A stretch of 64,000 nt of DNA from Candidatus Heimdallarchaeum aukensis (GTDB lineage Archaea > Asgardarchaeota > Heimdallarchaeia > Heimdallarchaeales > Heimdallarchaeaceae): NCBI GenBank assembly GCA_021513695.1, contig CP084166.1, positions 1,856,001-1,920,000 of the forward strand, read 5' to 3'. A program made the translations under genes and the position numbers. Position 1 is the first letter of the stretch, and the number at the start of each line of letters is the position of its first letter. Shown piece by piece: positions 2,288-55,151 of the stretch. A model generated the notes under the pieces. The model did not search any database, was not told where the DNA came from, and was given only the letters and a program-made list of their open reading frames with translations.

Positions 2288-3742
2288 CTAGAACTGCAAC
2301 CAATGGCTGAGTCCTCGGCAAACAGTGAAATGAGTAGAACTGTATTTTTGACCAGTGAGGTAATCAGTAATAGTGTTTCCTCGGGGACGGAAAAGCGTCC
2401 CAAGGAACTTCCGAGCGATATTCATTGCTCCTGTGAGGTCAGAGTGGAAAGTATAACCGCAAGAGGAGCAATGTACTAACCCTCTAACGGGACGGACAAC
2501 TTTCCTTCCACAACGAGCACAGTAAGAAGATGTCCCTTTTTCTCCTATTATTAATATACGGTGAGGTTCAAAACCTCGGAGTATCAATGCTCGACGGAGA
2601 AGAGCAAGAACAAGGTAAAAATTCCACTGGTGAAGTTTTCTACGAAACTTACGAGTACTTTTACCTTTCCCTTTTTCTTTCTCCTCTCGAATGTGTTTAG
2701 GGTAACCTACAACAACGAAAAGGTCATACTTTCGAGCATAGGTCTCTATCGTCTGGACGATGTCGCTTATAAATTGGTGAGTATAAGCTCGTTTAACGTT
2801 TCTATATCTTCTTCGAAGAAGACCGAGAAAACGATAGATTTGATGTTTCTTACCCGACTGGTCGTTTAGAGCCGCTTTCCTCTGAAGACGGGAAAGTTTG
2901 AGTTTATATCGATGATTAACTCTATTCCACTGTTTGGTATGCCATAATTTTATCTCTTTACTTGTTAATTTCTTTTTAGGCGTCAGTAACACTCCTGCAG
3001 CAGGAATGTTTATCCCTATATCTATTCCCAGCACAGCTGGAGGAAGAGAAGAAGAATTTTCTTCTTCAGGAGGATAAAAAGAGGAAGAAAGAACTTTTAA
3101 TTGGAAATATACCCACCACTCACGTGTAGAACGTTTATATCTTAACTCTAGACTTTTTATTCTTCCTTTCTTTAACTCTTTCTGGTGGAAAGTGCTCATC
3201 TCTAAAGGTAACCACAATCTCTGGTGGTAAGGTGTTCCTCTTCTCCATGTATCTAACGAGTCTCTTACCCCCACCCACCAACGAGTGAGAGTATTATCCT
3301 TCTCTTTAGGTAGATGAACTAGAATGAACCTCTTTTTGTTAATTAATTGTCTTCTTGCTCTCTTTATCGGAGGACGAGTAGGACTGGGTCTATACCCTTG
3401 TTCGTATAGTTGCACAGCTATATCTCTACACTCTTGAAACTCATCGTGAGAACAATAAGGGAACATTTTCTTGAAATCGTGAGGAACAGTTTCTCTCCTT
3501 TCCTCTTCTTTAACTTTTGAAGTCGTTAGCGTCAGTTCATCTAGTTTTCCTTTATGTACCCTTATTTCCCCTTTTTTTGTTCTTCTACATACCTTTCTTC
3601 TGTTGTGATGTATTATTCTCACATACTTCTCTATTATTCTTGTGTCTCTTCCTGTTATTCTCCTTAACCTTTCCTTTTTCCTTGTCGTCAATACCTTATT
3701 CTTTACTCTCACTTTCAAGGTTTTGACGACGTCCTCCATCAT
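2288..3742 (-). CDS. tnpB: TnpB-like RNA-guided endonuclease (IS200/IS605 family OrfB); no TnpA partner in the window
   Basis: 484 aa. Basic N-terminus, RuvC-I motif LGIDIGINIPAAGV, CxxC...CxxC zinc finger (CARCGRK...CSSCG) and RuvC-III motif HSDLTGAMNIARK. Local GC (~40-45%) is clearly above the ~30% flanks. Confidence 0.8.
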   Translation of the reverse strand: MMEDVVKTLKVRVKNKVLTTRKKERLRRITGRDTRIIEKYVRIIHHNRRKVCRRTKKGEIRVHKGKLDELTLTTSKVKEEERRETVPHDFKKMFPYCSHDEFQECRDIAVQLYEQGYRPSPTRPPIKRARRQLINKKRFILVHLPKEKDNTLTRWWVGVRDSLDTWRRGTPYHQRLWLPLEMSTFHQKELKKGRIKSLELRYKRSTREWWVYFQLKVLSSSFYPPEEENSSSLPPAVLGIDIGINIPAAGVLLTPKKKLTSKEIKLWHTKQWNRVNHRYKLKLSRLQRKAALNDQSGKKHQIYRFLGLLRRRYRNVKRAYTHQFISDIVQTIETYARKYDLFVVVGYPKHIREEKEKGKGKSTRKFRRKLHQWNFYLVLALLRRALILRGFEPHRILIIGEKGTSSYCARCGRKVVRPVRGLVHCSSCGYTFHSDLTGAMNIARKFLGTLFRPRGNTITDYLTGQKYSSTHFTVCRGLSHWLQF

Positions 3743-3918: not shown

Positions 3919-4022
3919 TGGTGAGGGGAGGGCGATTCGAACGCCCGAACCACTAAGGAACGGATGGCCCATCTTCTTTAAGATCTTGAGTCCGTCGCCG
4001 TTGACCTCTTGGCTATCCCCCC
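3919..4022 (-). tRNA. tRNA-Leu (anticodon CAA) with an anticodon-loop intron of about 19 nt; CCA encoded
   Basis: The reverse complement folds as GGGGGGA acceptor, 3-bp D stem, anticodon stem ACGGA/TCCGT with loop CUCAAGA, an insert TCTTAAAGAAGATGGGCC, a long variable arm, and T arm GGGCG-TTCGAAT-CGCCC. 3' strand TCCCCTC-A-CCA. Confidence 0.75.
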
Positions 4023-4796: not shown

Positions 4797-6164
4797 TTAA
4801 TAGGAAGTTATTGAGACATCCTTTTTTGCTTTTTCATAATTTGGTTGAATTTTGTCCCATATTCCTTTTATTTTCTGAACATCATCAGGATGAGCATAAA
4901 CTCGGACTAATGTATACCTTGAATTTCCACTTGCTATGGTGTATATATATTTAGTTGCTATCAACGCTTCGCTAAGTGTAAAAGATTTTCTTCCTGGATG
5001 TATACGGTTGTGTGGATCATAAATGAAAACATTTGAAGCTTGAAACTCATCAGCGCTAATTGTAGAAAGTTTATATGTTGAATCAATTATCATTTTATGT
5101 TTTATTTTGATATTATTTGCTTTGGCATATTCTTTAACTTTTTTAATGAATGATTCGTTTGCAGTCATTTCACATAGTTCTTCTACAGAAACACCTAGAT
5201 TTTCAGAAGTTGTCTCGTCTATTATCTTTTCCCAGACAGCTTTGTGTAGGCGTCGGTTTAGAAAGTCTTTTACATACGCCTTGGCTTTCTTTAGCTCCGG
5301 AGCCTCGCTAGAAAATATTTCCCCTATTAATGTATATTCGTTCAAGTAGGTAAATAACTCAAAATCTTTTGTTCGTTCAATTAAATTAAGAGGTTCTAAT
5401 GACTCTCTTAAAAACGATTGAATTAGAATATCAGCAGCTCTTGCAGCTTTATGGAAATATACACTCTTATATTCAAAAAATCTACCAATTAAAGATGAGT
5501 AGATATCATCTAGAACTTTCCAATTATAATGTATGGCTTCTTCTCCGTCATGTTCATGAATTATGGTATTATTTATTATTCTATTAACATCAATTTCACC
5601 AAAGTGAGTAGTTCCAGCAAATAGAGAATCACGTAACATAAAGTCTAGTCTATCAGCGCCTAAAGCGCCTTGGATCAGAGGATGTAATAAATGACTACGT
5701 CCATCCCAAACTTTAATCAATTCCTCAGGGTCACAAAATTCCTCAATTATAGGCTTGAGTAAATCAGATTTTATCAATTTATTACGATGGACATCATGAC
5801 CATGGGGATGATCAGGATATACTTGTTTATAAACAACGTCATCATATTGATGACTAAATGGTCCATGTCCAATATCGTGGAGTAACCCTGCTAACCTAGC
5901 AAGTTGCACTTTATAGGTCACATCATCATAATCCTTGAACACTTCAGCAGTATATTGACCAGCTAAATGCATAACACCAACACAGTGAGCGAAGCGTGTA
6001 TGAACTGCAGAAGGGTAAACATGACGAACCCCAGATAATTGACTTATCCAGCGCAATCGCTGAAAAACAGGAGTGTCAATTATTTTATTTTCTATCTCGG
6101 TTATTCTTATTTCATCATGAATAGCATCTTTAATTGTACGAGTATATTTTAAATTAGACTGCAT
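4797..6164 (-). CDS. HD-domain dNTP triphosphohydrolase-like protein (dGTPase/SAMHD1 family)
   Basis: 455 aa with TPVFQRLRWISQLSG..HTRFAHCVGV...LLHDIGHGPFSH, the metal-binding motifs of HD-domain dNTPases. Confidence 0.7.
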   Translation of the reverse strand: MQSNLKYTRTIKDAIHDEIRITEIENKIIDTPVFQRLRWISQLSGVRHVYPSAVHTRFAHCVGVMHLAGQYTAEVFKDYDDVTYKVQLARLAGLLHDIGHGPFSHQYDDVVYKQVYPDHPHGHDVHRNKLIKSDLLKPIIEEFCDPEELIKVWDGRSHLLHPLIQGALGADRLDFMLRDSLFAGTTHFGEIDVNRIINNTIIHEHDGEEAIHYNWKVLDDIYSSLIGRFFEYKSVYFHKAARAADILIQSFLRESLEPLNLIERTKDFELFTYLNEYTLIGEIFSSEAPELKKAKAYVKDFLNRRLHKAVWEKIIDETTSENLGVSVEELCEMTANESFIKKVKEYAKANNIKIKHKMIIDSTYKLSTISADEFQASNVFIYDPHNRIHPGRKSFTLSEALIATKYIYTIASGNSRYTLVRVYAHPDDVQKIKGIWDKIQPNYEKAKKDVSITSY

Positions 6165-6256
6165 ATCGATTCCTCTATACTTTACAATAACTTTTTAATA
6201 TTAAATCCTTTTAATCTTTTTGATTTTGGATGATATTTCGACAAAAAAAGAATAAC

Positions 6257-6363
6257 TGGTGGACTGGGCGAGAATTTCGGTCTAGACACCCACAGCGCCA
6301 TATCTCTCGAACTCGCGGCCTCTTCACTGCGAATGAAGCGTTCTTCCTCTGAACTACCAGCCC
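6257..6363 (-). tRNA. tRNA-Ala (anticodon CGC) with a ~32-nt insertion in the T-loop (non-canonical intron); CCA encoded
   Basis: Reverse complement: acceptor GGGCTGG/CCAGTCC with G3:U70, D arm GTTC-AGAGGAA-GAAC, anticodon stem CTTCA/TGAAG with loop TTCGCAG. T stem GCGAG/CTCGC encloses a 39-nt loop (TTCGA...GACCGAAATT), then ACCA. Confidence 0.6.
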
Positions 6364-7100: not shown

Positions 7101-8564
7101 TTAGAAATTTATAATATTAATAATTTCTTTTCCTTCTTCCAACATCTGTTTGCATTTGTCCACAAGTAAAAATACTTCCTCTTTAAATGAATTTGAGATT
7201 ATTCCTTTTTCAGCTAAATCATTTATAATTTCTGTGTCTTGAACCTCAATTTTATCTGCTTTCTTTATTAAAGAAACACCTAGATCAATATAACGGATAT
7301 ATCCTTCATTATATAGCTCTACTGGAGTTACAATTTTTATGTATTCACCCATTAATTTTTCTTTTCTGTAAACTTTAGTGTGAACAGTCCAACACCCTTC
7401 TTTGATATATGTAACCACATTGTCTCCACTATTAATTGGTTCGTCGATTGCGAAGTGAGACCCTCTTGAAGCTCGGAAACTCCGTTTTATAACCATTGTA
7501 TCATCGTCCCAGTTTAACTGTCCTAGTATTCTATCTAACGGAGATGCAATCAAGCTATATGATTGCTCTTTGATTAATGCATTTTCAGAGAAATCTTTCT
7601 CTAAAATAACCTCCTTAAGTATTCTAGATAATTTATCAGGATCAATATCCTGGGATATTCTTTCTGCGAAAGTAGTTGCTATCTTCAAATTTTCAGAATA
7701 TGACATAAACCAATGATATAAAGGAAATGTTGGAGCAATTATACTTCTTATCTCATCTAGCTTTTGCTTTGCGCCTTGAACAAATAATATGTGAGCCACA
7801 GTTTGACCTGGTTGTAATATTCCAGGTCCATAGGAGGAACCAGAAATTAACAGGTCTAACTCTTCAGATTTCTGGATTAACTTCTGTATCTCAGAGGTCA
7901 AATCCTTATCGCTAATTGATGCTGCACTAGTTCGCATAATTAGCCCATGGCCATGAGGTCTAAGTTTTTTTCCACGCTCAAACAGATTGTCTCTATCATC
8001 TTTTGATAATTTTCTCGAAACTCTAACAAAGCGTGCATCTCGCTCTAGAATAACATGCTGTCCTGGAAAATGAATAATATCTGAACATAAAGGCAGCTGA
8101 TCCCCTAGAACATTCAATTCATTTACTTGAACAACAACTTTTTGCCCTTTTTTATAATTTGCATTAAATAAAATTGCATTTATTTTTTCTCCGATGTCTA
8201 CAATTGAAAGATTTTTCTCGAAATTCACATGTACTATCTCTCCATTGTATATAGCATGTAGTTGTACTGGATGAAGTAAAACGATGGAATTAGGTATTTT
8301 ATCAAAAATGTTTGAAATAATTTCTTCAACATACTCTTCATCACCTTCAATTTTTATCCCGTAACCGCCTAGAATATCAGTTATATCTATGTCGTGGGCA
8401 TTTAGATTCTCACTTATTCCAAAAATTTTACTTTGTTCAGTACTCGGTTGTACCAATTTATATCCTAAATCATCTGATAATAATTTTATAATTGGAACAT
8501 CATAAATACTTCTAACACGAAAAGTTGGTACCATTAAATCACCACTTAAATTTTCTAACGACAC
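7101..8564 (-). CDS. RNase E/G-like RNA-binding protein (FAU-1 family), putative
   Basis: 487 aa. An internal GLIMRTSAASISDKDL resembles the RNase E/G catalytic-domain motif G(L/I)IxRTxA. The size matches archaeal FAU-1. Confidence 0.45.
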   Translation of the reverse strand: MSLENLSGDLMVPTFRVRSIYDVPIIKLLSDDLGYKLVQPSTEQSKIFGISENLNAHDIDITDILGGYGIKIEGDEEYVEEIISNIFDKIPNSIVLLHPVQLHAIYNGEIVHVNFEKNLSIVDIGEKINAILFNANYKKGQKVVVQVNELNVLGDQLPLCSDIIHFPGQHVILERDARFVRVSRKLSKDDRDNLFERGKKLRPHGHGLIMRTSAASISDKDLTSEIQKLIQKSEELDLLISGSSYGPGILQPGQTVAHILFVQGAKQKLDEIRSIIAPTFPLYHWFMSYSENLKIATTFAERISQDIDPDKLSRILKEVILEKDFSENALIKEQSYSLIASPLDRILGQLNWDDDTMVIKRSFRASRGSHFAIDEPINSGDNVVTYIKEGCWTVHTKVYRKEKLMGEYIKIVTPVELYNEGYIRYIDLGVSLIKKADKIEVQDTEIINDLAEKGIISNSFKEEVFLLVDKCKQMLEEGKEIINIINF

Positions 8565-8656: not shown

Positions 8657-8762
8657 AAGCCAAATAGTGGAGCCAGGACGGGGATTTGAACCCCGGAGGC
8701 ATAAGCCAGCGGTTATCTCTCTGATGTTTCGAGACCGCCTCCGTACCACTAGGATATCCTGG
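8657..8762 (-). tRNA. tRNA-Ser (anticodon CGA) with an anticodon-loop intron of about 13 nt
   Basis: Reverse complement: GCCAGGA acceptor, 3-bp D stem, anticodon stem GCGGT/ACCGC with loop CTCGAAA plus a CATCAGAGAGATA insert, a long variable arm, and T arm CGGGG-TTCAAAT-CCCCG. 3' strand TCCTGGC-T-CCA. Confidence 0.65.
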
Positions 8763-8903
8763 CAAAGGAAAAGTTCATTGTCTTGATTTTCATTGAAGTC
8801 AATATTTTAAGATTTCTACCTTGTTCACTTTTTAATTGATATAAGTACATTTGTGTTTCTTGATATTTTCGAACAAACAAAGATATGGTTAAAAAAAGAA
8901 AAG

Positions 8904-15208: not shown

Positions 15209-17983
15209 GTGAAAAAAGTGGCTAACTATCTTACAACAAGACAAATTAGTAATAAATTAAGAAAGTTGAAAGAAGAAGGAATTCCTCAGACAATTGTTGA
15301 TGAATTAAAAGAAGAATTGAAAGGAAAAAACGTAACTCAAAAACAGATGGATCTTATAATAAAAGAGATAGTTAAGAGTTATGAATTTGCGCAAATTGAC
15401 CCAGGTAGCGCAGTAGGAACAGTAGCAGCACAATCTATAGGCGAACCAGGAACACAAATGAGTATTCCAGGTAATGAGAAAGTAGTTGTAAAAATTGGAA
15501 GTAAAACAGAAATTATAGAAATCGGAGAGTTTATTGACAATTTATTAGAAAAAAATGAAGGTTATTTAATAGAAAATGAAACAGAGACAGTTGTTTATGA
15601 TCTACCAAATAATAGTGATATCTATGTTTTAGGGATAAACAATAAAGAAAAAATAGTATGGCAAAGAATTCTACAAATAAGTAGGCATTTGCCTAATGGG
15701 AGCCTATTAAGAATAAAAACAAAATCAGGTAGAACAATTACCGCTACATTTTCTCATTCGTTTGTTATACGAAAAGATAATGAGATTGTGCCAGTAAAAG
15801 GAAAAGAATTGCAGTTAGGAGACAGATTACCTATCGTCTTATCTATTCCATCTATGACGCCAATAACAGAGTTATCAGTAAGTGAATATTTACCAAAAGA
15901 GGAAATATGGCATAACCCAGATTTAGCTATAACAATACCAATCAGAGAAGAATATGGAGGAAATCGTTACAACGAACATACAACATCAATAAAACAAGAT
16001 GATTCGTATGAAATCATTAAAATAGAGAAAATTGAAGAGGAAGATTCTTTTTATCCTAGAATTTATCAAAATAATAAAGCACTCATTCCTGAGAAAATTC
16101 CTCTCACAGATGATTTTGCATGGTTTATTGGTGCATATCTAGCAGAAGGGAGTAACACTGGTACAAGAATTTCCATTTCAAATATCAACTATGATTACCT
16201 TAAAAAAGTTGGAAAGTTTGCGGAGTGGCTAAATATTTCAACAGCAACAACAAGCAAAAATGAAGAATTTGGATCTAGTTTAAGTATCCATCTTAACTCA
16301 ATGCTTCTCGCAAAGTTGATGAAAAGAATGTGTGGAAAAGGCCCAGAAACTAAATTTGTTCCAGGATGGACAATCAATACAAAAACGGAATTTATTGGAC
16401 ACTTGCTTCGAGGATTTTTCGATGGAAATGCAACTATTAGTACAGAAAAAGGTGTAATCATAGCTCGTTCTAAATCCAAAGAATTACGCGATGGAATATG
16501 TCTTTTACTATCAAGGTTAGGAATTTTTGCTAAAAAAAGTAACCAAGGAAATAGTTACATATTAACCATTCCTGGAAAATATGCGGAGATATTCCATTCA
16601 AAAATTGGTTCTGACATTGATTATAAAGAAAAATCACTGCTTCAACTTATAGAAATTGAAAAATCAAAACAAAAGACAGATGACTCTGTGGATATAATAC
16701 CAGGATTAGGAACCATCTTTGAGGATATAAAAGAAAAACTAGACTTAAGCCCACAAGTAATTTCTATTGCAAGCAACAAACAAGCCATTGGAAGACAAGC
16801 ATGTGCTCAATATATCAAAATGTTTTCTGAAATTGCTGTGAAGAAAGGAATTAATATAGATAATGAGCTTATGACCTTAAATCAAGCATATAATAGTGAC
16901 GTATTATGGGATGAAATTATAAGTTTAGAGAAAATCGATTCTCCTACACCTTATGTCTATGATTTTGGGGTTTCAGAACTTGAAACATTTATGACTGCAG
17001 AAGGAATAATAACTCATAACACCTTACAGACTTTCCATTACTCTGGTGTTGCAGAGATGTCTGTTCTTCGAGGTTTACCAAGATTAATAGAAATCGTTGA
17101 CGCTAGAAAAAATCCTAGTACTCCAACTATGAGAATTCATTTAGATAAAATAGGAGAAAAGGATGAACAAATAGCTAAACAAGTCGCTAGAAGAATTGAG
17201 TTAACTACTGTTAGCAATGTAGCAACTAGTATTAAGCACAGTTTTGCAGAAGGATGCATAAAGATCAAATTGGAACCAGTTTTACTAGAAGATAAAGGTA
17301 TTGAGCCTGAGACCATCGTCAAAAAGATCCAGAAGAAAAGAAGGCGTATTAAAGTAGAAATAGACCCCAACGATGAATATACTATTATTGTAACCCCAAC
17401 AAAAGAACTTAAGTTCAATGAATTACCAAAACTTGCAGAAAAGGTAAAGGACATACCTATTAAAGGATTAAAAAATATTACTAGAGTAGTAGTTCTTAAA
17501 AACAAACAAGGAGAGTATTATCTTCAAAGTGAAGGGAGTAATTTCAGTGAATTACTGCGAATACCGGGAGTCGATCCAACTAGATGCTATAGCAGTGACA
17601 TAAATCAAATTGCAGAAACCCTAGGGATTGAAGCAGCAAGAAATGCGCTCATACAAGAATCTTTAGCAGTTATGAAAGAACAGGGATTAGACGTAGATAA
17701 AAGACATGTTATGCTTGTTGCAGATCTTATGACATTGGTTGGAGAAGTACAGCAAATTGGACGACATGGTGTTTCAGGAAAGAAAAGCTCTGTTTTTGCT
17801 AGAGCAGCTTTTGAAGTAACCGTGAAACATTTGTTAGAAGCCGCAATCCATGGGGAACATGAACCTTTAGAAGGAATTACAGAAAATGTTATAATTGGAC
17901 AAACAATTGCATTAGGAACAGGAATTGTGGATCTTACTATGAGTCCAAATTATAGAGAGTTTGCCAAAGAAGAAGAAAACTAA
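15209..17983 (+). CDS. rpoA2: DNA-directed RNA polymerase subunit A'' (Rpo1C), intein-containing precursor
   Basis: 924 aa. The extein AAQSIGEPGTQM | TLQTFHYSGVAEMSVLRGLPRLIEI is interrupted by a 520-aa insert. The conserved C-terminal A'' sequence is present. Confidence 0.9.
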   Translation: MKKVANYLTTRQISNKLRKLKEEGIPQTIVDELKEELKGKNVTQKQMDLIIKEIVKSYEFAQIDPGSAVGTVAAQSIGEPGTQMSIPGNEKVVVKIGSKTEIIEIGEFIDNLLEKNEGYLIENETETVVYDLPNNSDIYVLGINNKEKIVWQRILQISRHLPNGSLLRIKTKSGRTITATFSHSFVIRKDNEIVPVKGKELQLGDRLPIVLSIPSMTPITELSVSEYLPKEEIWHNPDLAITIPIREEYGGNRYNEHTTSIKQDDSYEIIKIEKIEEEDSFYPRIYQNNKALIPEKIPLTDDFAWFIGAYLAEGSNTGTRISISNINYDYLKKVGKFAEWLNISTATTSKNEEFGSSLSIHLNSMLLAKLMKRMCGKGPETKFVPGWTINTKTEFIGHLLRGFFDGNATISTEKGVIIARSKSKELRDGICLLLSRLGIFAKKSNQGNSYILTIPGKYAEIFHSKIGSDIDYKEKSLLQLIEIEKSKQKTDDSVDIIPGLGTIFEDIKEKLDLSPQVISIASNKQAIGRQACAQYIKMFSEIAVKKGINIDNELMTLNQAYNSDVLWDEIISLEKIDSPTPYVYDFGVSELETFMTAEGIITHNTLQTFHYSGVAEMSVLRGLPRLIEIVDARKNPSTPTMRIHLDKIGEKDEQIAKQVARRIELTTVSNVATSIKHSFAEGCIKIKLEPVLLEDKGIEPETIVKKIQKKRRRIKVEIDPNDEYTIIVTPTKELKFNELPKLAEKVKDIPIKGLKNITRVVVLKNKQGEYYLQSEGSNFSELLRIPGVDPTRCYSSDINQIAETLGIEAARNALIQESLAVMKEQGLDVDKRHVMLVADLMTLVGEVQQIGRHGVSGKKSSVFARAAFEVTVKHLLEAAIHGEHEPLEGITENVIIGQTIALGTGIVDLTMSPNYREFAKEEEN
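15461..17020 (+). mobile_element. Intein with a LAGLIDADG homing-endonuclease domain inside rpoA''
   Basis: The insert begins with Ser right after GEPGTQM and ends ...GIITHN followed by extein Thr. It contains the LAGLIDADG-like blocks WFIGAYLAEGS and LRGFFDGNAT. Confidence 0.8.
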
Positions 17984-28949: not shown

Positions 28950-29951
28950 TCACCCTTGTTGACTTTTCCTTGATATATAAGTTATCTGTGGCTCTTTTTC
29001 TTGCTGCGGAGTTTTTCTCATGGGTTTTCTCAAAAATACTGTACGCTTTTTGCTTCCAGGAATTGAACCTTTAACTAAAACGTAGTTATTTTTTACCAGC
29101 CCATAATTTACAAATCCGCCATCAGGAATAATTTCTTTACCATCAGAACCTATTTGCATAATTCTTTTGTTGTATTCTGTACGAGTATGAAAACCCATTT
29201 GACCATGTCGGGGAACAGTCCACATTGTTCGTGCTGGGTGCCAGGGGCCTATTGAACCAACACCACGTTTTGTTCCTTTAGATTTGTGTTGTAGTATTTT
29301 GATTCCATGTCTTTTAACAGGTCCTTGGAAACCTTTTCCTTTTGTAACAGCAATTACATCGGCAAACTCTCCAGCTTTGAACACATCACGTATCATTACT
29401 TCCTTGCCTAATAGAGATAATCCATATTCGAATCCTTCAGAGGGACTATTACAACCGATTTTTATTTCGGCAATAGAGGGGGTTTTTGTACCTATCCCAG
29501 TCAAGTATGGTTGTGTATGTACAATGGCTCTGATCTCCACCATTTCGGGGAGCTTTTCTTCAAAGTTCTTTTTTGCTTTCTCAAAATCGTATTTTTTAGG
29601 GGTTTTAACACGCCGACGTAATTCTTCCTTATATTCAGAAGAGAAGAGATCAGCTGAAATACTAAGACCATATGGAGTCTTAGCGTAGCCGCGGAGACCA
29701 TAAACAACAATTGGTGGGGTCTCAATAACAGTGCAAGCTACTGTTACCTCGCGGTTCGCCAGATGACTTTGCCGGCGATCCTCTATATACGATAGTTGGC
29801 TCATTCCCGCTTTGATACCTAAGAAACCAAGCAACTTTGGCTGCCCGTTATATTCTGGCCAAGCTCTTGGTTTAGGAGTAAGCCTTGCGGCCCTATTCCT
29901 TCTGTATCCAAGCGATGAGCGACGAGGTGCATGGCTTGTTCTACTTCCCAT
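28950..29951 (-). CDS. rpl3: 50S ribosomal protein L3 (uL3)
   Basis: 333 aa starting MGSRTSHAPRRSSLGYRRNRAARL, the archaeal uL3 N-terminus. The 5' two-thirds (29288-29951) lies inside tandem-duplication copy 1. Confidence 0.9.
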   Translation of the reverse strand: MGSRTSHAPRRSSLGYRRNRAARLTPKPRAWPEYNGQPKLLGFLGIKAGMSQLSYIEDRRQSHLANREVTVACTVIETPPIVVYGLRGYAKTPYGLSISADLFSSEYKEELRRRVKTPKKYDFEKAKKNFEEKLPEMVEIRAIVHTQPYLTGIGTKTPSIAEIKIGCNSPSEGFEYGLSLLGKEVMIRDVFKAGEFADVIAVTKGKGFQGPVKRHGIKILQHKSKGTKRGVGSIGPWHPARTMWTVPRHGQMGFHTRTEYNKRIMQIGSDGKEIIPDGGFVNYGLVKNNYVLVKGSIPGSKKRTVFLRKPMRKTPQQEKEPQITYISRKSQQG

Positions 29952-31473
29952 GTTATCTCACATCTTTATTTTTATTTTTTATACCATAAAACCAGTTTGT
30001 TATTTTTAATGTACAAACTGGTATCTTATGCTTGTATTCCGAAAATCATTTTGCTCATATAAAGATGTTGTTTTGCGTTTTTTATAATACAGCTAGAAAA
30101 CTAGACTTTACTAAAATAACGTTTTAAAGGACTTCCACAATCTGGACAATGAACCAGTTTTTTTGTGAATTTAGCTCCACACACAGTACATTTCCAGAAA
30201 TACTTTTTCTTTTTTGTAATTTTAAAGAAAGAAGATTCTACTCTAATATTAAATATCTTACATAAATTTTGAATAGCATTATCATCTGAAATGATAGTGA
30301 ACTCTGGGTTTTCTATTGCAAGAGCTATAATAGTAAGATCATAACTCGATAATCGTCCATATTCACCAGCTTGCTTAGCTAGATTAACTGCTTTAGAAAA
30401 GGAAGAAGATGAAGGGATGAGAAAAAGAATGTTTTGTTTATTCTCAAGAAGACTTAAAACTAAATTGCTTTCAAATGATTTTAATTCCTCAGTGATATTA
30501 GCGGGAATTATAACAACACAATCGTCTGTTAAGAACCAATCTTTTGCCAAGATTTGGATTACAACCGTAGAGTCTAGTATTAATTTTTTTGGAAAATTTT
30601 TAGGTAAATGTCGCTCTTGAACCAATTAATTCACCGAATACGTTCCAACAACTTATTTCGAACACGTTTTATATAATTATCAGAGAATCTAATAAATCTA
30701 ATTTTTTCTCCAGATTTGTAAATCTTTACATGTTCATTGTATCCTAACGTGTAGTGAGCCTGTCCATCAACAACAACGATGCCTGTTCTGAATTTAGCCT
30801 CGTTAGTAACTGTTACTACCGTATCAGTTGAAAAAACAATAGGAGAAACATTTACAATAAAGGGACAGATTGGAACAAGGCAAAAAGCTTCTACATTAGG
30901 CATAATCAAAGGTCCTCCAGCTGACCTTGCATATGCGCTAGAACCTGCACTTGTAGAAACGATTACACCATCACCTTCAATAACATAAAATAATTTGTCA
31001 TTAATTTCAACCTTTAACCTCATAATGTTTCCATGATTCTTTGGAACAATAGTTATATCATTAACTGCTGAAATAGGGGGATAAGACTCTGATGAGACAG
31101 CTACTGTTGAAAACTCTTCTATTATAAATTCATCATTCAATATTTTATTGATTGCCCAATCTAACTTTTGTGGAATTATCTCAGTAAGAAAACCTACACG
31201 ACCACAATTAACTCCCAAAATAGGAGATTCTTTCCATTGAGTAAAAGTTTTCAGGATTGTCCCATCTCCTCCAAAAACAATGACTAGATCGGGTTGTTGT
31301 CCTTGTATAATGAAATCAGATTTCCGTAAATTTTTAGCTAAAACTTGACTTAGAGCAACCTTATAACCCTTTTCTAATAACATAGAAAGCGCTTCTGATG
31401 CAGAAATCAAAGCACTTTCTTTTTCTGATGAAACTAGAAGTATTAAAGAATCTTTTGTCAGCAATGCCCTTCT
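29288..31473. repeat. Tandem duplication, copy 1 (2186 bp)
   Basis: The sequence 29288-31473 recurs at 31474-33658 with near-perfect identity. One 1-bp indel was seen (tcgctcttg at ~30611 versus tcctcttg at ~32797). Confidence 0.9.
30101..30625 (-). CDS. nob1: Nob1-like PIN-domain endonuclease with a C-terminal zinc ribbon (rRNA maturation), copy 1
   Basis: 174 aa. PIN-like N-terminus (KLILDSTVVIQ...DD...) and terminal CTVCGAKFTKKLVHCPDCGS zinc ribbon. Size and architecture match archaeal Nob1. Confidence 0.55.
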   Translation of the reverse strand: MVQERHLPKNFPKKLILDSTVVIQILAKDWFLTDDCVVIIPANITEELKSFESNLVLSLLENKQNILFLIPSSSSFSKAVNLAKQAGEYGRLSSYDLTIIALAIENPEFTIISDDNAIQNLCKIFNIRVESSFFKITKKKKYFWKCTVCGAKFTKKLVHCPDCGSPLKRYFSKV

Positions 31474-31539
31474 GTTGTAGTATTTTGATTCCATGTCTTT
31501 TAACAGGTCCTTGGAAACCTTTTCCTTTTGTAACAGCAA
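30631..31539 (-). CDS. nadK: NAD kinase (NadK/PpnK), copy 1; the N-terminal 25 codons extend into duplicated rpl3-antisense sequence
   Basis: 302-aa ORF with the GGDGT motif (VIVFGGDGTILKT). By alignment with copy 2, the ancestral start is probably the TTG at 31464. Confidence 0.7.
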   Translation of the reverse strand: MLLQKEKVSKDLLKDMESKYYNRRALLTKDSLILLVSSEKESALISASEALSMLLEKGYKVALSQVLAKNLRKSDFIIQGQQPDLVIVFGGDGTILKTFTQWKESPILGVNCGRVGFLTEIIPQKLDWAINKILNDEFIIEEFSTVAVSSESYPPISAVNDITIVPKNHGNIMRLKVEINDKLFYVIEGDGVIVSTSAGSSAYARSAGGPLIMPNVEAFCLVPICPFIVNVSPIVFSTDTVVTVTNEAKFRTGIVVVDGQAHYTLGYNEHVKIYKSGEKIRFIRFSDNYIKRVRNKLLERIR

Positions 31540-32137
31540 TTACATCGGCAAACTCTCCAGCTTTGAACACATCACGTATCATTACTTCCTTGCCTAATAG
31601 AGATAATCCATATTCGAATCCTTCAGAGGGACTATTACAACCGATTTTTATTTCGGCAATAGAGGGGGTTTTTGTACCTATCCCAGTCAAGTATGGTTGT
31701 GTATGTACAATGGCTCTGATCTCCACCATTTCGGGGAGCTTTTCTTCAAAGTTCTTTTTTGCTTTCTCAAAATCGTATTTTTTAGGGGTTTTAACACGCC
31801 GACGTAATTCTTCCTTATATTCAGAAGAGAAGAGATCAGCTGAAATACTAAGACCATATGGAGTCTTAGCGTAGCCGCGGAGACCATAAACAACAATTGG
31901 TGGGGTCTCAATAACAGTGCAAGCTACTGTTACCTCGCGGTTCGCCAGATGACTTTGCCGGCGATCCTCTATATACGATAGTTGGCTCATTCCCGCTTTG
32001 ATACCTAAGAAACCAAGCAACTTTGGCTGCCCGTTATATTCTGGCCAAGCTCTTGGTTTAGGAGTAAGCCTTGCGGCCCTATTCCTTCTGTATCCAAGCG
32101 ATGAGCGACGAGGTGCATGGCTTGTTCTACTTCCCAT
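31474..32137 (-). pseudogene. Truncated duplicate of rpl3 (5' 664 bp only)
   Basis: Identical to rpl3 codons 1-221 (MGSRTSHAPRR...HGIKILQ). It then runs into unrelated sequence at the duplication junction 31473/31474. The track ORF 31361..32137 is this chimera. Confidence 0.8.
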
Positions 32138-32286
32138 GTTATCTCACATCTTTATTTTTATTTTTTATACCATAAAACCAGTTTGTTATTTTTAATGTAC
32201 AAACTGGTATCTTATGCTTGTATTCCGAAAATCATTTTGCTCATATAAAGATGTTGTTTTGCGTTTTTTATAATACAGCTAGAAAA

Positions 32287-32850
32287 CTAGACTTTACTAA
32301 AATAACGTTTTAAAGGACTTCCACAATCTGGACAATGAACCAGTTTTTTTGTGAATTTAGCTCCACACACAGTACATTTCCAGAAATACTTTTTCTTTTT
32401 TGTAATTTTAAAGAAAGAAGATTCTACTCTAATATTAAATATCTTACATAAATTTTGAATAGCATTATCATCTGAAATGATAGTGAACTCTGGGTTTTCT
32501 ATTGCAAGAGCTATAATAGTAAGATCATAACTCGATAATCGTCCATATTCACCAGCTTGCTTAGCTAGATTAACTGCTTTAGAAAAGGAAGAAGATGAAG
32601 GGATGAGAAAAAGAATGTTTTGTTTATTCTCAAGAAGACTTAAAACTAAATTGCTTTCAAATGATTTTAATTCCTCAGTGATATTAGCGGGAATTATAAC
32701 AACACAATCGTCTGTTAAGAACCAATCTTTTGCCAAGATTTGGATTACAACCGTAGAGTCTAGTATTAATTTTTTTGGAAAATTTTTAGGTAAATGTCCT
32801 CTTGAACCAATTAATTCACCGAATACGTTCCAACAACTTATTTCGAACAC
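32287..32850 (-). CDS. nob1: Nob1-like PIN/zinc-ribbon endonuclease, copy 2 (N-terminus altered by a 1-bp indel)
   Basis: 187-aa ORF identical to copy 1 from HLPKNFPKK onward. The upstream frame differs because of the single-base difference between the repeat copies. Confidence 0.5.
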   Translation of the reverse strand: MFEISCWNVFGELIGSRGHLPKNFPKKLILDSTVVIQILAKDWFLTDDCVVIIPANITEELKSFESNLVLSLLENKQNILFLIPSSSSFSKAVNLAKQAGEYGRLSSYDLTIIALAIENPEFTIISDDNAIQNLCKIFNIRVESSFFKITKKKKYFWKCTVCGAKFTKKLVHCPDCGSPLKRYFSKV

Positions 32851-33649
32851 GTTTTATATAATTATCAGAGAATCTAATAAATCTAATTTTTTCTCCAGAT
32901 TTGTAAATCTTTACATGTTCATTGTATCCTAACGTGTAGTGAGCCTGTCCATCAACAACAACGATGCCTGTTCTGAATTTAGCCTCGTTAGTAACTGTTA
33001 CTACCGTATCAGTTGAAAAAACAATAGGAGAAACATTTACAATAAAGGGACAGATTGGAACAAGGCAAAAAGCTTCTACATTAGGCATAATCAAAGGTCC
33101 TCCAGCTGACCTTGCATATGCGCTAGAACCTGCACTTGTAGAAACGATTACACCATCACCTTCAATAACATAAAATAATTTGTCATTAATTTCAACCTTT
33201 AACCTCATAATGTTTCCATGATTCTTTGGAACAATAGTTATATCATTAACTGCTGAAATAGGGGGATAAGACTCTGATGAGACAGCTACTGTTGAAAACT
33301 CTTCTATTATAAATTCATCATTCAATATTTTATTGATTGCCCAATCTAACTTTTGTGGAATTATCTCAGTAAGAAAACCTACACGACCACAATTAACTCC
33401 CAAAATAGGAGATTCTTTCCATTGAGTAAAAGTTTTCAGGATTGTCCCATCTCCTCCAAAAACAATGACTAGATCGGGTTGTTGTCCTTGTATAATGAAA
33501 TCAGATTTCCGTAAATTTTTAGCTAAAACTTGACTTAGAGCAACCTTATAACCCTTTTCTAATAACATAGAAAGCGCTTCTGATGCAGAAATCAAAGCAC
33601 TTTCTTTTTCTGATGAAACTAGAAGTATTAAAGAATCTTTTGTCAGCAA
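32816..33649 (-). CDS. nadK: NAD kinase (NadK/PpnK), copy 2; no in-frame ATG, candidate TTG start
   Basis: 277-aa ORF identical to copy 1 from LTKDSLILLV onward. An upstream in-frame stop at 33677-33679 leaves only the TTG at 33649 as a start. Confidence 0.65.
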   Translation of the reverse strand: MLTKDSLILLVSSEKESALISASEALSMLLEKGYKVALSQVLAKNLRKSDFIIQGQQPDLVIVFGGDGTILKTFTQWKESPILGVNCGRVGFLTEIIPQKLDWAINKILNDEFIIEEFSTVAVSSESYPPISAVNDITIVPKNHGNIMRLKVEINDKLFYVIEGDGVIVSTSAGSSAYARSAGGPLIMPNVEAFCLVPICPFIVNVSPIVFSTDTVVTVTNEAKFRTGIVVVDGQAHYTLGYNEHVKIYKSGEKIRFIRFSDNYIKRVRNKLLERIR

Positions 33650-33876: not shown

Positions 33877-34716
33877 ATGCGATATGCAGTAAAAGTTTTT
33901 TATTTGGGTGATTATTATTATGGTTACCAAAGACAACCTGATGTACCTACTGTAGAAGGTACAATTATCAATGCACTAAAGAAGGCAGGATACATTACTG
34001 ATGTAAAAACAAGTAATTTTGCAAGTGCAACACGGACTGACCGTTATGTAAGTGCATTAGGAAATTGTTTCGCTTTTAATACAAAAAAGGATCTAATAAT
34101 TACCCAATTAAATCATTTTTTACCTCACAATAACAGTATTATTTGTTGGGCAAAAAGCACCGTAGACGAAGATTTTTCTCCAAGGTTTGCAAAACTAAAA
34201 AAATATTGGTATTTTCTCTCAAGAGACTACATAAATGAAAAACAGTTATCAATTAATGATATAAAGAAAGTAAGTAAAAAATTCGAGGGAACCCACGATT
34301 TTAGATTATTTTCAAAGTTTAATGAAAAAGATACTATACGATCAATTGACAAAATTAATTTAATTGAAAATCAAGATAGTTTAATTTTAGAATTCATCGG
34401 TCAATCATTTCTTTGGCAGCAAATTAGAAGAATTGTATCCTACATTTTATCATTTCCTTTTCTACCAGAACAGTTTCAAGACACAGAGGAATTATTAGGG
34501 GAAAATAGCATAAATCACCTTCCCCTTAAACCAGCAAGTCCACACCACCTTTTATTTGTTGAGCATTATTATGAAAATCTTAATTGGAAAGTAAACCAAA
34601 CCACATTAAAGAAAATTTTATCATATTCAATGTTTCAATCTTTTGAACTCGATTCAAAACATGCTAGATTCAAAAAGCAATGGTCCTTTTTTAAAGATAG
34701 GATCGAAGAAAATTAA
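33877..34716 (+). CDS. truA: tRNA pseudouridine synthase A (TruA/Pus1-like)
   Basis: 279 aa with ASATRTDRYVSALGN (compare the RTDAGVHA catalytic-Asp motif) and GTHDFRLFSK (compare GTHDFxxF). Confidence 0.65.
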   Translation: MRYAVKVFYLGDYYYGYQRQPDVPTVEGTIINALKKAGYITDVKTSNFASATRTDRYVSALGNCFAFNTKKDLIITQLNHFLPHNNSIICWAKSTVDEDFSPRFAKLKKYWYFLSRDYINEKQLSINDIKKVSKKFEGTHDFRLFSKFNEKDTIRSIDKINLIENQDSLILEFIGQSFLWQQIRRIVSYILSFPFLPEQFQDTEELLGENSINHLPLKPASPHHLLFVEHYYENLNWKVNQTTLKKILSYSMFQSFELDSKHARFKKQWSFFKDRIEEN

Positions 34717-35065: not shown

Positions 35066-35205
35066 GCCCTGATGGTGTAGCGCGGCCAATCATAATGGAC
35101 TCTCACATGTTGAGGTCCGTGGGCCAAAACAGAAGAATCCATTGACCCGGGTTCAAAAAGATAAATGTTGAGGCATTTATTTTGTAACTCCCGGTCAGGG
35201 CACCA
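35066..35205 (+). tRNA. tRNA-Glu (anticodon CUC) with two ~31-nt insertions, one in the anticodon loop and one in the T-loop; CCA encoded
   Basis: Acceptor GCCCTGA/TCAGGGC. D arm GGTGTAGCGCGGCCAATCAT closely matches archaeal tRNA-Glu. Anticodon stem ATGGA (35095-99)/TCCAT (35138-42) encloses 38 nt beginning CUCUCA. T stem CCGGG (35147-51)/CCCGG (35190-94) encloses 38 nt, TTCAAA...T. Both inserts contain ATGTTGAGG. Confidence 0.6.
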
Positions 35206-41459: not shown

Positions 41460-42023
41460 TTATCGCACTTCAATACGTTTCTTTTCAACTGCCTTTATTA
41501 ATTCACGAGCAAAAGTTTGAAATGCCTCTTCTACCTTTTCTCCAGTTTTAGCACTAGTTATGAAGAATGAATCTGTAGGTAAATCAAGTTCTTTTACTAT
41601 ATTAAGTGCTTCCTCTTCATCAACAGCAATTTGATCTTTTAGATCGGCTTTATTACCAATAACAAAAAATATTACGTCATCCTCTACCCCATTTAATCCA
41701 CGTTTCCATTCACGTATAGATTCTAACGTGTTAGGCCTTGTCAGATCAAAAACAAGAAAGCACCCTTTTGACCCACGATAAAACTTCTCTCTAACAGAAG
41801 AAAACCTTTCTTGACCCCCAATATCTGAAATCAAAAATAATACCTCGTCCTCCCCCACAAATAATTGTTTACTTAAAATGTCTACCCCAATAGTGATCAT
41901 ATACGATGATTCAAATCGATTATGGACATATCTTGAAATTAATGAACTTTTGCCTACTCCGGGATCTCCAAGTAAGACAATTTTAAATATGTATTTTTTT
42001 CCCTGAGATTTATTTAGAGTCAT
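41460..42023 (-). CDS. Ras-superfamily small GTPase, Rab-like
   Basis: 187 aa with G1 GDPGVGKSS, switch I YMITIGVD (Rab-like TIGVD), G3 DIGGQERF, G4 GNKADL and G5 TSAK. Confidence 0.75.
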   Translation of the reverse strand: MTLNKSQGKKYIFKIVLLGDPGVGKSSLISRYVHNRFESSYMITIGVDILSKQLFVGEDEVLFLISDIGGQERFSSVREKFYRGSKGCFLVFDLTRPNTLESIREWKRGLNGVEDDVIFFVIGNKADLKDQIAVDEEEALNIVKELDLPTDSFFITSAKTGEKVEEAFQTFARELIKAVEKKRIEVR

Positions 42024-55035: not shown

Positions 55036-55151
55036 GGCTCGGTAGCTCAGCAGGCTAGAGCGCAAGACTCATAATCTTGTGTTAAAGGGCTAGATATGGC
55101 TTGCGAGGAGAAATCTTGAGGTCGGGGGATCGAAACCCCCCCGAGCCACCA
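55036..55151 (+). tRNA. tRNA-Met/Ile2 (anticodon CAU) with a 39-nt anticodon-loop intron; T-loop AUCGAAA; CCA encoded
   Basis: Acceptor GGCTCGG/CCGAGCC, D arm GCTC-AGCAGGCT-AGAGC, anticodon stem CAAGA/TCTTG with loop CTCATAA. The insert is ATCTTGTGTTAAAGGGCTAGATATGGCTTGCGAGGAGAA, and TCTTG is repeated at both junctions. T arm GGGGG-ATCGAAA-CCCCC. Confidence 0.75.

Follow-up and report, generated by a model that had tools for sequence, protein, structure and literature searches.

A tRNA-Ala(CGC) gene with a probable 32-nt archaeal intron in its T-loop in a Heimdallarchaeaceae genome

The region 6257..6363 of the window (the whole 64-kb stretch of DNA that was analysed) was confirmed as a real alanine tRNA gene, located on the minus strand. 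It is very probably a functional, syntenic tRNA-Ala(CGC) gene that is interrupted between tRNA positions 59 and 60 by a protein-spliced archaeal intron of 32 nt. The gene and its fold were directly observed, as were the single splice solution, the pattern of conservation and the covariation. A sequence-only reading of this DNA, which gave no strand, had proposed that the T-loop interruption is a non-canonical archaeal intron, and this proposal was supported by both the BHB geometry and the comparative data.

Pfam scans showed that the window is archaeal (split RpoA, aIF5A, ribosomal proteins and a Ras-family GTPase), and its G+C content is 31.9%. The best named matches of the HD-domain protein encoded beside the tRNA gene (4797..6164) belonged to Candidatus Heimdallarchaeaceae, with identities of at most 83%. 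The host belongs to the Asgard family Heimdallarchaeaceae.

The tRNA-Ala(CGC) gene and its predicted splice sites

On the minus strand, the gene reads GGGCTGG TA GTTC AGAGGAA GAAC G CTTCA TTCGCAG TGAAG AGGCC GCGAG (39 nt) CTCGC CCAGTCC A CCA. Direct reading revealed a 7-bp acceptor stem with G3:U70 and the discriminator A73, which together with the alanine anticodon CGC give the gene its tRNA-Ala identity. The D stem (4 bp) and the anticodon stem (5 bp) are perfect, and the 5-bp T stem GCGAG/CTCGC encloses 39 nt, corresponding to 7 T-loop nucleotides and 32 extra ones. Every feature listed in the sequence-only reading, namely a tRNA-Ala(CGC) with G3:U70 and perfect D and anticodon arms, was found in the sequence, and the T stem surrounds 39 nt exactly as described there. 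The G3:U70 pair was invariant in all five aligned intron-containing sequences and was also present in three intron-free orthologues (L001, L002 and L004).

Neither ARAGORN on the raw window nor Rfam at the gathering threshold made a call at this locus. In E-value mode, Rfam reported nothing beyond a truncated tRNA match, whose 25.7 bits fall short of the gathering score of 29. Once 30-34 nt were removed inside the T-loop, ARAGORN called tRNA-Ala(cgc). The seven-T run on the 3' side of the gene is likely to function as an archaeal transcription stop. The coordinates of the gene, of its predicted splicing elements and of the other interrupted tRNA genes are listed in Table 1.

Table 1. Positions in the window of the tRNA-Ala(CGC) gene, its predicted BHB elements and other interrupted tRNA genes
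Feature	Position	Strand	Details
Complete tRNA-Ala(CGC) precursor gene	6257..6363	-	107 nt including encoded CCA; read directly
5' exon, tRNA positions 1-59	6306..6363	-	Acceptor 5' strand, D arm, anticodon arm, variable loop, T-stem 5' strand, T-loop UUCGAG
3' exon	6257..6273	-	U60, T-stem 3' strand CUCGC, acceptor 3' strand CCAGUCC, A73, CCA
Anticodon CGC	6329..6331	-	Direct reading; ARAGORN on in-silico spliced gene
Predicted 32-nt intron AGAUAUGGCGCUGUGGGUGUCUAGACCGAAAU between tRNA positions 59/60	6274..6305	-	Sole BHB-compatible excision yielding a tRNA
BHB outer helix, 5' strand (T-stem GCGAG)	6312..6316	-	Pairs with 6268..6272; two compensatory pairs among orthologues
BHB outer helix, 3' strand (T-stem CUCGC)	6268..6272	-	Pairs with 6312..6316
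BHB central 4-bp helix, exon strand (T-loop U54 U55 C56 G57)	6308..6311	-	Position 57 covaries with an intron base
BHB central 4-bp helix, intron strand (CGAA)	6276..6279	-	Fold and orthologue alignment
5' splice-site bulge A-G/A	6305..6307	-	Predicted cut 6306/6305, from the register rule
3' splice-site bulge A-U/U	6273..6275	-	Predicted cut 6274/6273; bulge in MFE and centroid folds, same register rule
Intron hairpin	6283..6302	-	U62-U70 with G74-A81 (gene numbering); kept and strengthened in L005 and L087
Seven-T run, 7 nt past CCA	6243..6249	-	Direct reading; T-run also in L005 and L087
9-mer AGATATGGC in the Ala intron	6297..6305	-	Exactly two occurrences in the 64-kb window
9-mer AGATATGGC in the Met intron	55092..55100	+	Second occurrence
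tRNA-Leu(CAA)	3919..4022		Canonical 37/38 intron 3966..3984, 19 nt, strict hBHBh'
96-nt tRNA gene	8668..8763	-	ARAGORN reports a 4-base anticodon
tRNA-Glu(CTC), 140 nt, two introns	35066..35205	+	ARAGORN call only after in-silico removal of both introns
tRNA-Met(CAT)	55036..55151	+	39-nt insertion; spliced product a clean 77-nt tRNA-Met

In a BHB motif, a 3-nt bulge follows the central helix on each strand, in the 5'-to-3' direction. When the 107-nt precursor was folded without constraints, both the MFE and the centroid structure recovered the cloverleaf, and in both the T stem (gene positions 48-52 with 92-96) stacks on a helix formed by UUCG (53-56) and CGAA (85-88), with the three nucleotides AUU (89-91) bulging from the 3' strand. 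AGA (57-59) comes after the UUCG helix on the 5' strand. A BHB core was therefore found, with two 3-nt bulges (AGA and AUU) on opposite strands and the 4-bp helix UUCG(54-57):CGAA, in tRNA numbering, between them. The central helix was complete (4/4) in the window, L005, L008 and L092, and had 3/4 pairs in L087 and in the T-loop intron of tRNA-Glu.

The 8-bp intron hairpin and the pair G60:C84 constitute a weak, interrupted inner helix. A strict hBHBh' motif, in which both flanking helices have 2 bp or more, was not found: the outer helix has 5 bp, while the inner side offers only G60:C84, followed by an internal loop and the hairpin. Because the inner helix is this single pair, the motif was classed as relaxed (hBH-like) rather than strict. 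The BHB that the sequence-only reading had suggested looking for at the junctions is present in this relaxed form, which fixes the splice sites at 59/60, but not in the strict form.

Both strands of the whole window were scanned for BHB motifs, and each candidate was spliced in silico and then submitted to ARAGORN. Exactly one solution was obtained for tRNA-Ala (outer helix 5 bp, central helix 4/4, inner helix 1 bp), the 32-nt excision given in Table 1. For the register rule used here (central helix, 3-nt bulge, cut after the second base), the canonical 37/38 intron of tRNA-Leu(CAA), a strict hBHBh', served as a check, and the rule yielded the correct 7-nt anticodon loop. The in-silico spliced tRNA-Ala is 75 nt long, folds into a canonical cloverleaf with the T-loop UUCGAGU and was called tRNA-Ala(cgc) by ARAGORN; its predicted exon junction joins ...GCGAGUUCGAG to UCUCGCCCAGUCCACCA. 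It retains U8, A14, G18G19, G15:C48, U33, A37, U54U55C56, A58, G53:C61, G3:U70 and A73. The mature T-loop was accordingly refined: the 3' exon begins at the last U before CTCGC, giving UUCGAGU and not the first seven bases, UUCGAGA.

In shuffled introns, a 4-bp central helix arose in the correct register in ~5% of cases and in any acceptable register in ~11%. The fold energy of the whole precursor was unremarkable (z = -1.08), and the intron hairpin alone, in the window copy, was not more stable than its shuffles; thermodynamics alone therefore does not carry the argument. The single sequence of the window is suggestive of a BHB intron, and it is the comparison with orthologues that makes the case strong.

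From these features, we infer both the act of splicing and the enzymes that perform it. The precursor would be transcribed from an A/T-rich upstream region and probably end at the T7 run. Its T stem would continue into the 4-bp helix between U54-G57 and CGAA, flanked by the two 3-nt bulges on opposite strands; EndA would recognise this relaxed BHB and cut after the second base of each bulge. An RtcB-type ligase would then join the exons into the 75-nt tRNA with its UUCGAGU loop, and the excised 32-nt intron would probably circularise. Before splicing, U54-G57 would be sequestered in the central helix, and therefore no T-loop/D-loop interaction would be expected until the intron has been removed. 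Pfam scans identified no EndA, RtcB or other splicing genes in the 64-kb window.

Conservation, distribution and history of the 59/60 intron

The gene order aIF5A, tRNA-Ala(CGC), HD gene was kept in most of the Heimdallarchaeaceae contigs examined, indicating that this locus is the tRNA-Ala(CGC) site of the family. In one contig (L093, P0007), synteny was lost and no tRNA was present upstream, and the locus of another (L095, P0023) gave no information. A profile search of genome contigs with the HD-protein alignment and degenerate patterns provided at least three useful Heimdall loci; the matches listed were mostly from Nitrososphaeria, and the window's own genome was absent among them. A metagenome search with the single HD protein provided four loci that were useful for comparison.

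Some variation was seen around this site. In L002, whose HD protein is 77% identical, an inversion of the aIF5A–S12 block has put the intron-free tRNA-Ala(CGC) at 5758..5829 (minus strand) in the opposite orientation. This tRNA gene has no encoded CCA; CCA is encoded in all other family orthologues read, and the more distant L009 copy also lacks it. Additionally, two short motifs, TTTTTGTCG(A/T)AAT and AAAAGATTAAAAGG..TAATATTAAA, are located between the tRNA and the HD gene (6192..6249, minus strand). Both were also found upstream of the HD gene in L001, L002, L004, L005, L008 and L087, being conserved across lineages at only ~68% protein identity, and they probably represent the promoter (BRE/TATA) of the HD gene or a regulatory site.

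Near-identical strains are represented by two metagenome contigs, L005 and L087, whose HD proteins are 98% and 97% identical to that of the window, respectively. Both carry the same interrupted tRNA-Ala gene, and in both the exons are identical to those of the window at 75/75 positions (5' exon 58/58, 3' exon 17/17). Meanwhile, the intron is only 85% (L005) and 76% (L087) identical. The corresponding identities were 93.6% and 73.9% at the third codon positions of the HD gene and 87% and 63% in the upstream spacer. The intron thus drifts at about the neutral rate, tracking third codon positions, while the exons stay frozen. The BHB core was kept in all three strains. In the L005 intron, the changes U:G to C:G and G:U to G:C, together with an inserted A that pairs, kept or improved the hairpin; in the L087 intron, a 3-bp inner helix (GUU:AAC) was gained, and the central helix contains a G.G mismatch.

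Introns at 59/60 were also found in two further lineages, one represented by L008, L089 and L090 (31 nt) and the other by L092 (30 nt), whose HD proteins are ~68-69% identical to that of the window. Their intron interiors have no recognisable similarity to the window intron. However, the architecture is the same, with the T stem, a UUCA:UGAA helix and the bulges AAA and UAU or AUU. Exon base 57 and its intron partner form G:C in the window and A:U in L008 and L092, a compensatory change between exon and intron. In the alignment of five distinct sequences, 99.2% of the pair cells were standard pairs, compared with 39-54% in slid controls, and double changes occurred in 9 of 25 pairs, of which two lie in the T stem and one belongs to the central BHB helix; with five sequences, this covariation count is descriptive and not a formal test.

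The intron is absent from seven sampled orthologues of tRNA-Ala(CGC) (L001, L002, L004, L007, L091, L094 and L009), which include the two nearest outgroups of the window clade (83% and 77% HD identity). The intron-bearing lineages, three in number, are scattered on the NJ tree of the HD protein. The distribution fits either of two histories, a single old intron that was lost at least four times or an intron gained two to three times at 59/60. L008 and L092 have in common the T stem UCGGG/CCCGA, the helix UUCA:UGAA and an intron start AAUUU, which hints at common descent of the intron within their clade, with losses in between.

The intron could also be a genuine BHB intron that belongs to a mobile family spreading between tRNA genes, so that the 59/60 introns would be independent recent gains. 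We regard this as rather doubtful, and it would refine the main explanation rather than compete with it. It draws on the patchy distribution, in which even the nearest relatives lack the intron, on the dissimilar intron sequences of the three lineages, on the interruption of tRNA-Glu at the same 59/60 site and on the 9-mer AGATATGGC, both of whose copies in the window lie inside tRNA introns. However, since the intron evolves at about the neutral rate, an ancestral intron would by now be expected to look unrelated as well, and the features common to L008 and L092 hint at shared descent. The 9-mer was rejected as a sign of intron transposition: it is not kept in the sister strains L005 and L087 and nothing longer matches, and the resemblance between the Ala and Met introns is probably due to chance. 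Moreover, no second copy of the Ala intron was found in the window at up to 3 mismatches. Clearly similar introns in other tRNA genes, as a transposed family would provide, were not seen within the window, where the 9-nt match with the tRNA-Met intron was the only one.

A related speculation, which we hold to be distinctly doubtful, is that 59/60 is a recurrent hot spot for the insertion or retention of tRNA introns in Heimdallarchaeaceae. At least two different tRNAs of this genome have an intron there, as do three lineages of one orthologue, and presence flips between close relatives. A single old intron followed by several losses would fit the same evidence just as well. If the hot spot is real, it would mean that introns are still being gained or lost in the archaeal family that is closest to eukaryotes. 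A possible advantage of a 59/60 intron would be that it breaks the target sites of integrating elements in the T-arm and 3' end; integrating elements in Heimdallarchaeum are known to use tRNA genes (PMC8813620).

It is very unlikely that the locus is a tRNA-Ala pseudogene in decay, with a 32-nt insertion in its T-loop that is not spliced out. Such a reading would account for the missing ARAGORN and Rfam calls; tRNA-Ala(UGC) could in principle decode GCG codons, and, as the closest relatives that lack the intron show, the gene can function uninterrupted. What rules against it is that the exons are identical while the intron diverges like third codon positions: at the distance of L087 (~26% difference at neutral sites), ~19 exon differences would be expected in a pseudogene, and none was observed in the three strains. 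In addition, all cloverleaf pairs and conserved tertiary bases are intact, the BHB core is in the correct register in all variants, and by synteny the locus corresponds to the tRNA-Ala(CGC) site of the family.

It is extremely unlikely that a real tRNA keeps the enlarged T-loop when mature, or loses the insert by a route other than BHB endonuclease and ligase, a reading to which the weak inner helix lends some weight, because all elongator tRNAs need the T-loop/D-loop interaction that a 39-nt T-loop would abolish, because a T-loop of 7 nt is what the BHB register leaves in tRNA-Glu and in each of five independent variants, and because an insert of 32 nt falls below the size of group I and group II introns. 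An intron that contains a C/D-box guide RNA is the case of euryarchaeal tRNA-Trp. This role was rejected for the tRNA-Ala intron, which at 32 nt is too short and in which neither box C (RUGAUGA) nor box D (CUGA) was seen by eye.

Other interrupted tRNA genes in the window

Five of the ten tRNA genes in the window are interrupted, two of them at a non-canonical position, which is 59/60 in both cases. The sequence-only reading had pointed to tRNA-Glu as a second gene with a T-loop interruption, and this second 59/60 intron indeed exists (Table 1). Its further suggestion that the organism routinely splices non-canonical introns would apply here to only these two genes, whereas the other interrupted genes are best read as carrying introns at 37/38.

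Specifically, tRNA-Glu(CTC) contains an intron of ~31 nt at the canonical position 37/38 (gene positions 41-71) and a 31-nt intron at 59/60 (gene positions 93-123). The latter has the same architecture as the tRNA-Ala intron, with an outer helix of 5 bp, the central helix UUCA:UGUA (3/4) and an inner helix of 10 bp. On the unspliced sequence, both ARAGORN and Rfam missed this gene. A gene for a tRNA pseudouridine synthase (TruA-type, 33877..34716) lies a short way upstream of it.

For tRNA-Met(CAT), an intron in the variable region was considered and rejected, as a canonical 37/38 intron of 39 nt explains the insertion equally well (AATCTTG at both ends; central helix 3/4, outer helix 5 bp).

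The 96-nt gene at 8668..8763 can be read in two ways. Removal of 13 nt at 37/38 gives a tRNA-Ser(CGA) with U33, a long variable arm and a central BHB helix of 3/4, and removal of 15 nt in a 4/4 BHB register gives a tRNA-Arg(UCG) with C33. The discriminator U73 is unusual for either tRNA-Ser or tRNA-Arg. The intron of this gene is best read as lying at the canonical position. The gene adjoins one encoding an RNase E/G-like protein (7101..8564, minus strand).

A 484-aa ORF at 2288..3742 (minus strand), located ~180 bp from tRNA-Leu(CAA), encodes a Cas12f1-like/TnpB TNB domain (IS200/IS605-type element).

Relation to known archaeal tRNA introns and further features of the window

Non-canonical BHB introns have been described in Thermoproteales, other Crenarchaeota, Nanoarchaeota and related groups (Marck & Grosjean 2003; Sugahara et al. 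2008; reviewed in PMC4090602), and 59/60 is explicitly listed among the known non-canonical positions (PMC4090602). The tRNA-Ala intron resembles them in being short, predicted to be protein-spliced and located outside 37/38, with a BHB formed partly from exon bases. As in some genes of these groups, a non-canonical and a canonical intron are combined in one gene, here tRNA-Glu. Unlike those cases, the host belongs to the Asgard family Heimdallarchaeaceae and not to TACK or DPANN, and the only non-canonical site in the window is 59/60, whereas Thermoproteales use many sites.

Within Asgard archaea, introns occur in 92-95% of the tRNA genes of Atabeyarchaeia and Freyarchaeia, at non-canonical positions and with several per gene (PMC11291895). 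The window shares with them the Asgard host, the non-canonical position and multiple introns per gene; the family is different and the interrupted fraction lower, at 5 of 10 window tRNA genes, 2 of them non-canonically. Regarding the transposed tRNA intron families known from Thermoproteales (summarised in PMC4090602), the patchy presence and the use of the same site in two tRNAs are similar, but clearly similar introns in unrelated tRNA genes were not found, the sole match being 9 nt long and not kept in the sister strains.

[quoted passage not shown] The tRNA-Ala precursor is similar to such substrates, with a strong outer helix, one clean 3-nt bulge, a 4-bp central helix and a poor inner helix. 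In this comparison, the enzyme type is taken from reports on Asgard archaea, no EndA gene having been found in the window. In the literature searched, no cleavage assay of any Heimdall EndA was found.

The 59/60 site, the relaxed BHB and the broad-specificity Asgard endonucleases are already known, so the mechanism is not new, and the tRNA-Ala case leaves the knowledge of how such introns work unchanged. What it provides is a clean, comparatively supported case of an intron in the T-loop (59/60) from the archaeal family that is usually regarded as the nearest to eukaryotes, with strain-level data in which exons are frozen and the intron drifts neutrally; presence or absence varies among close relatives. 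The literature searched contained no paper specifically on tRNA introns in Heimdallarchaeaceae, and the paper on circularised Heimdallarchaeum genomes does not discuss them. A 2018 survey suspected undetected disrupted tRNA genes in Asgard genomes (PMC5829648). Because the standard tRNA finders ARAGORN and Rfam (gathering score) miss both tRNA-Ala and tRNA-Glu, genomes of the Heimdall group that are annotated with these tools would seem to lack tRNAs that they have.

Several other features of the window were recorded. A gene for a Ras-family small GTPase, typical of Asgard genomes, is located at 41460..42023 (minus strand). A tandem duplication of ~2.19 kb, with 96-100% identity, spans about 29284..33649. 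It contains a fragment of ribosomal protein L3, a NAD kinase gene and a PIN plus RING-finger gene, with copies at 30101..31539 and 32287..33649; the L3 gene lies at 28950..29951 and its partial copy at 31361..32137. This could be either a real recent duplication or an assembly artefact. Additionally, the gene for the RNA polymerase subunit A'' (15209..17983, plus strand) holds an intein with a LAGLIDADG homing-endonuclease domain. An intein is also present in the L002 orthologue, and the L001 orthologue is intein-free.
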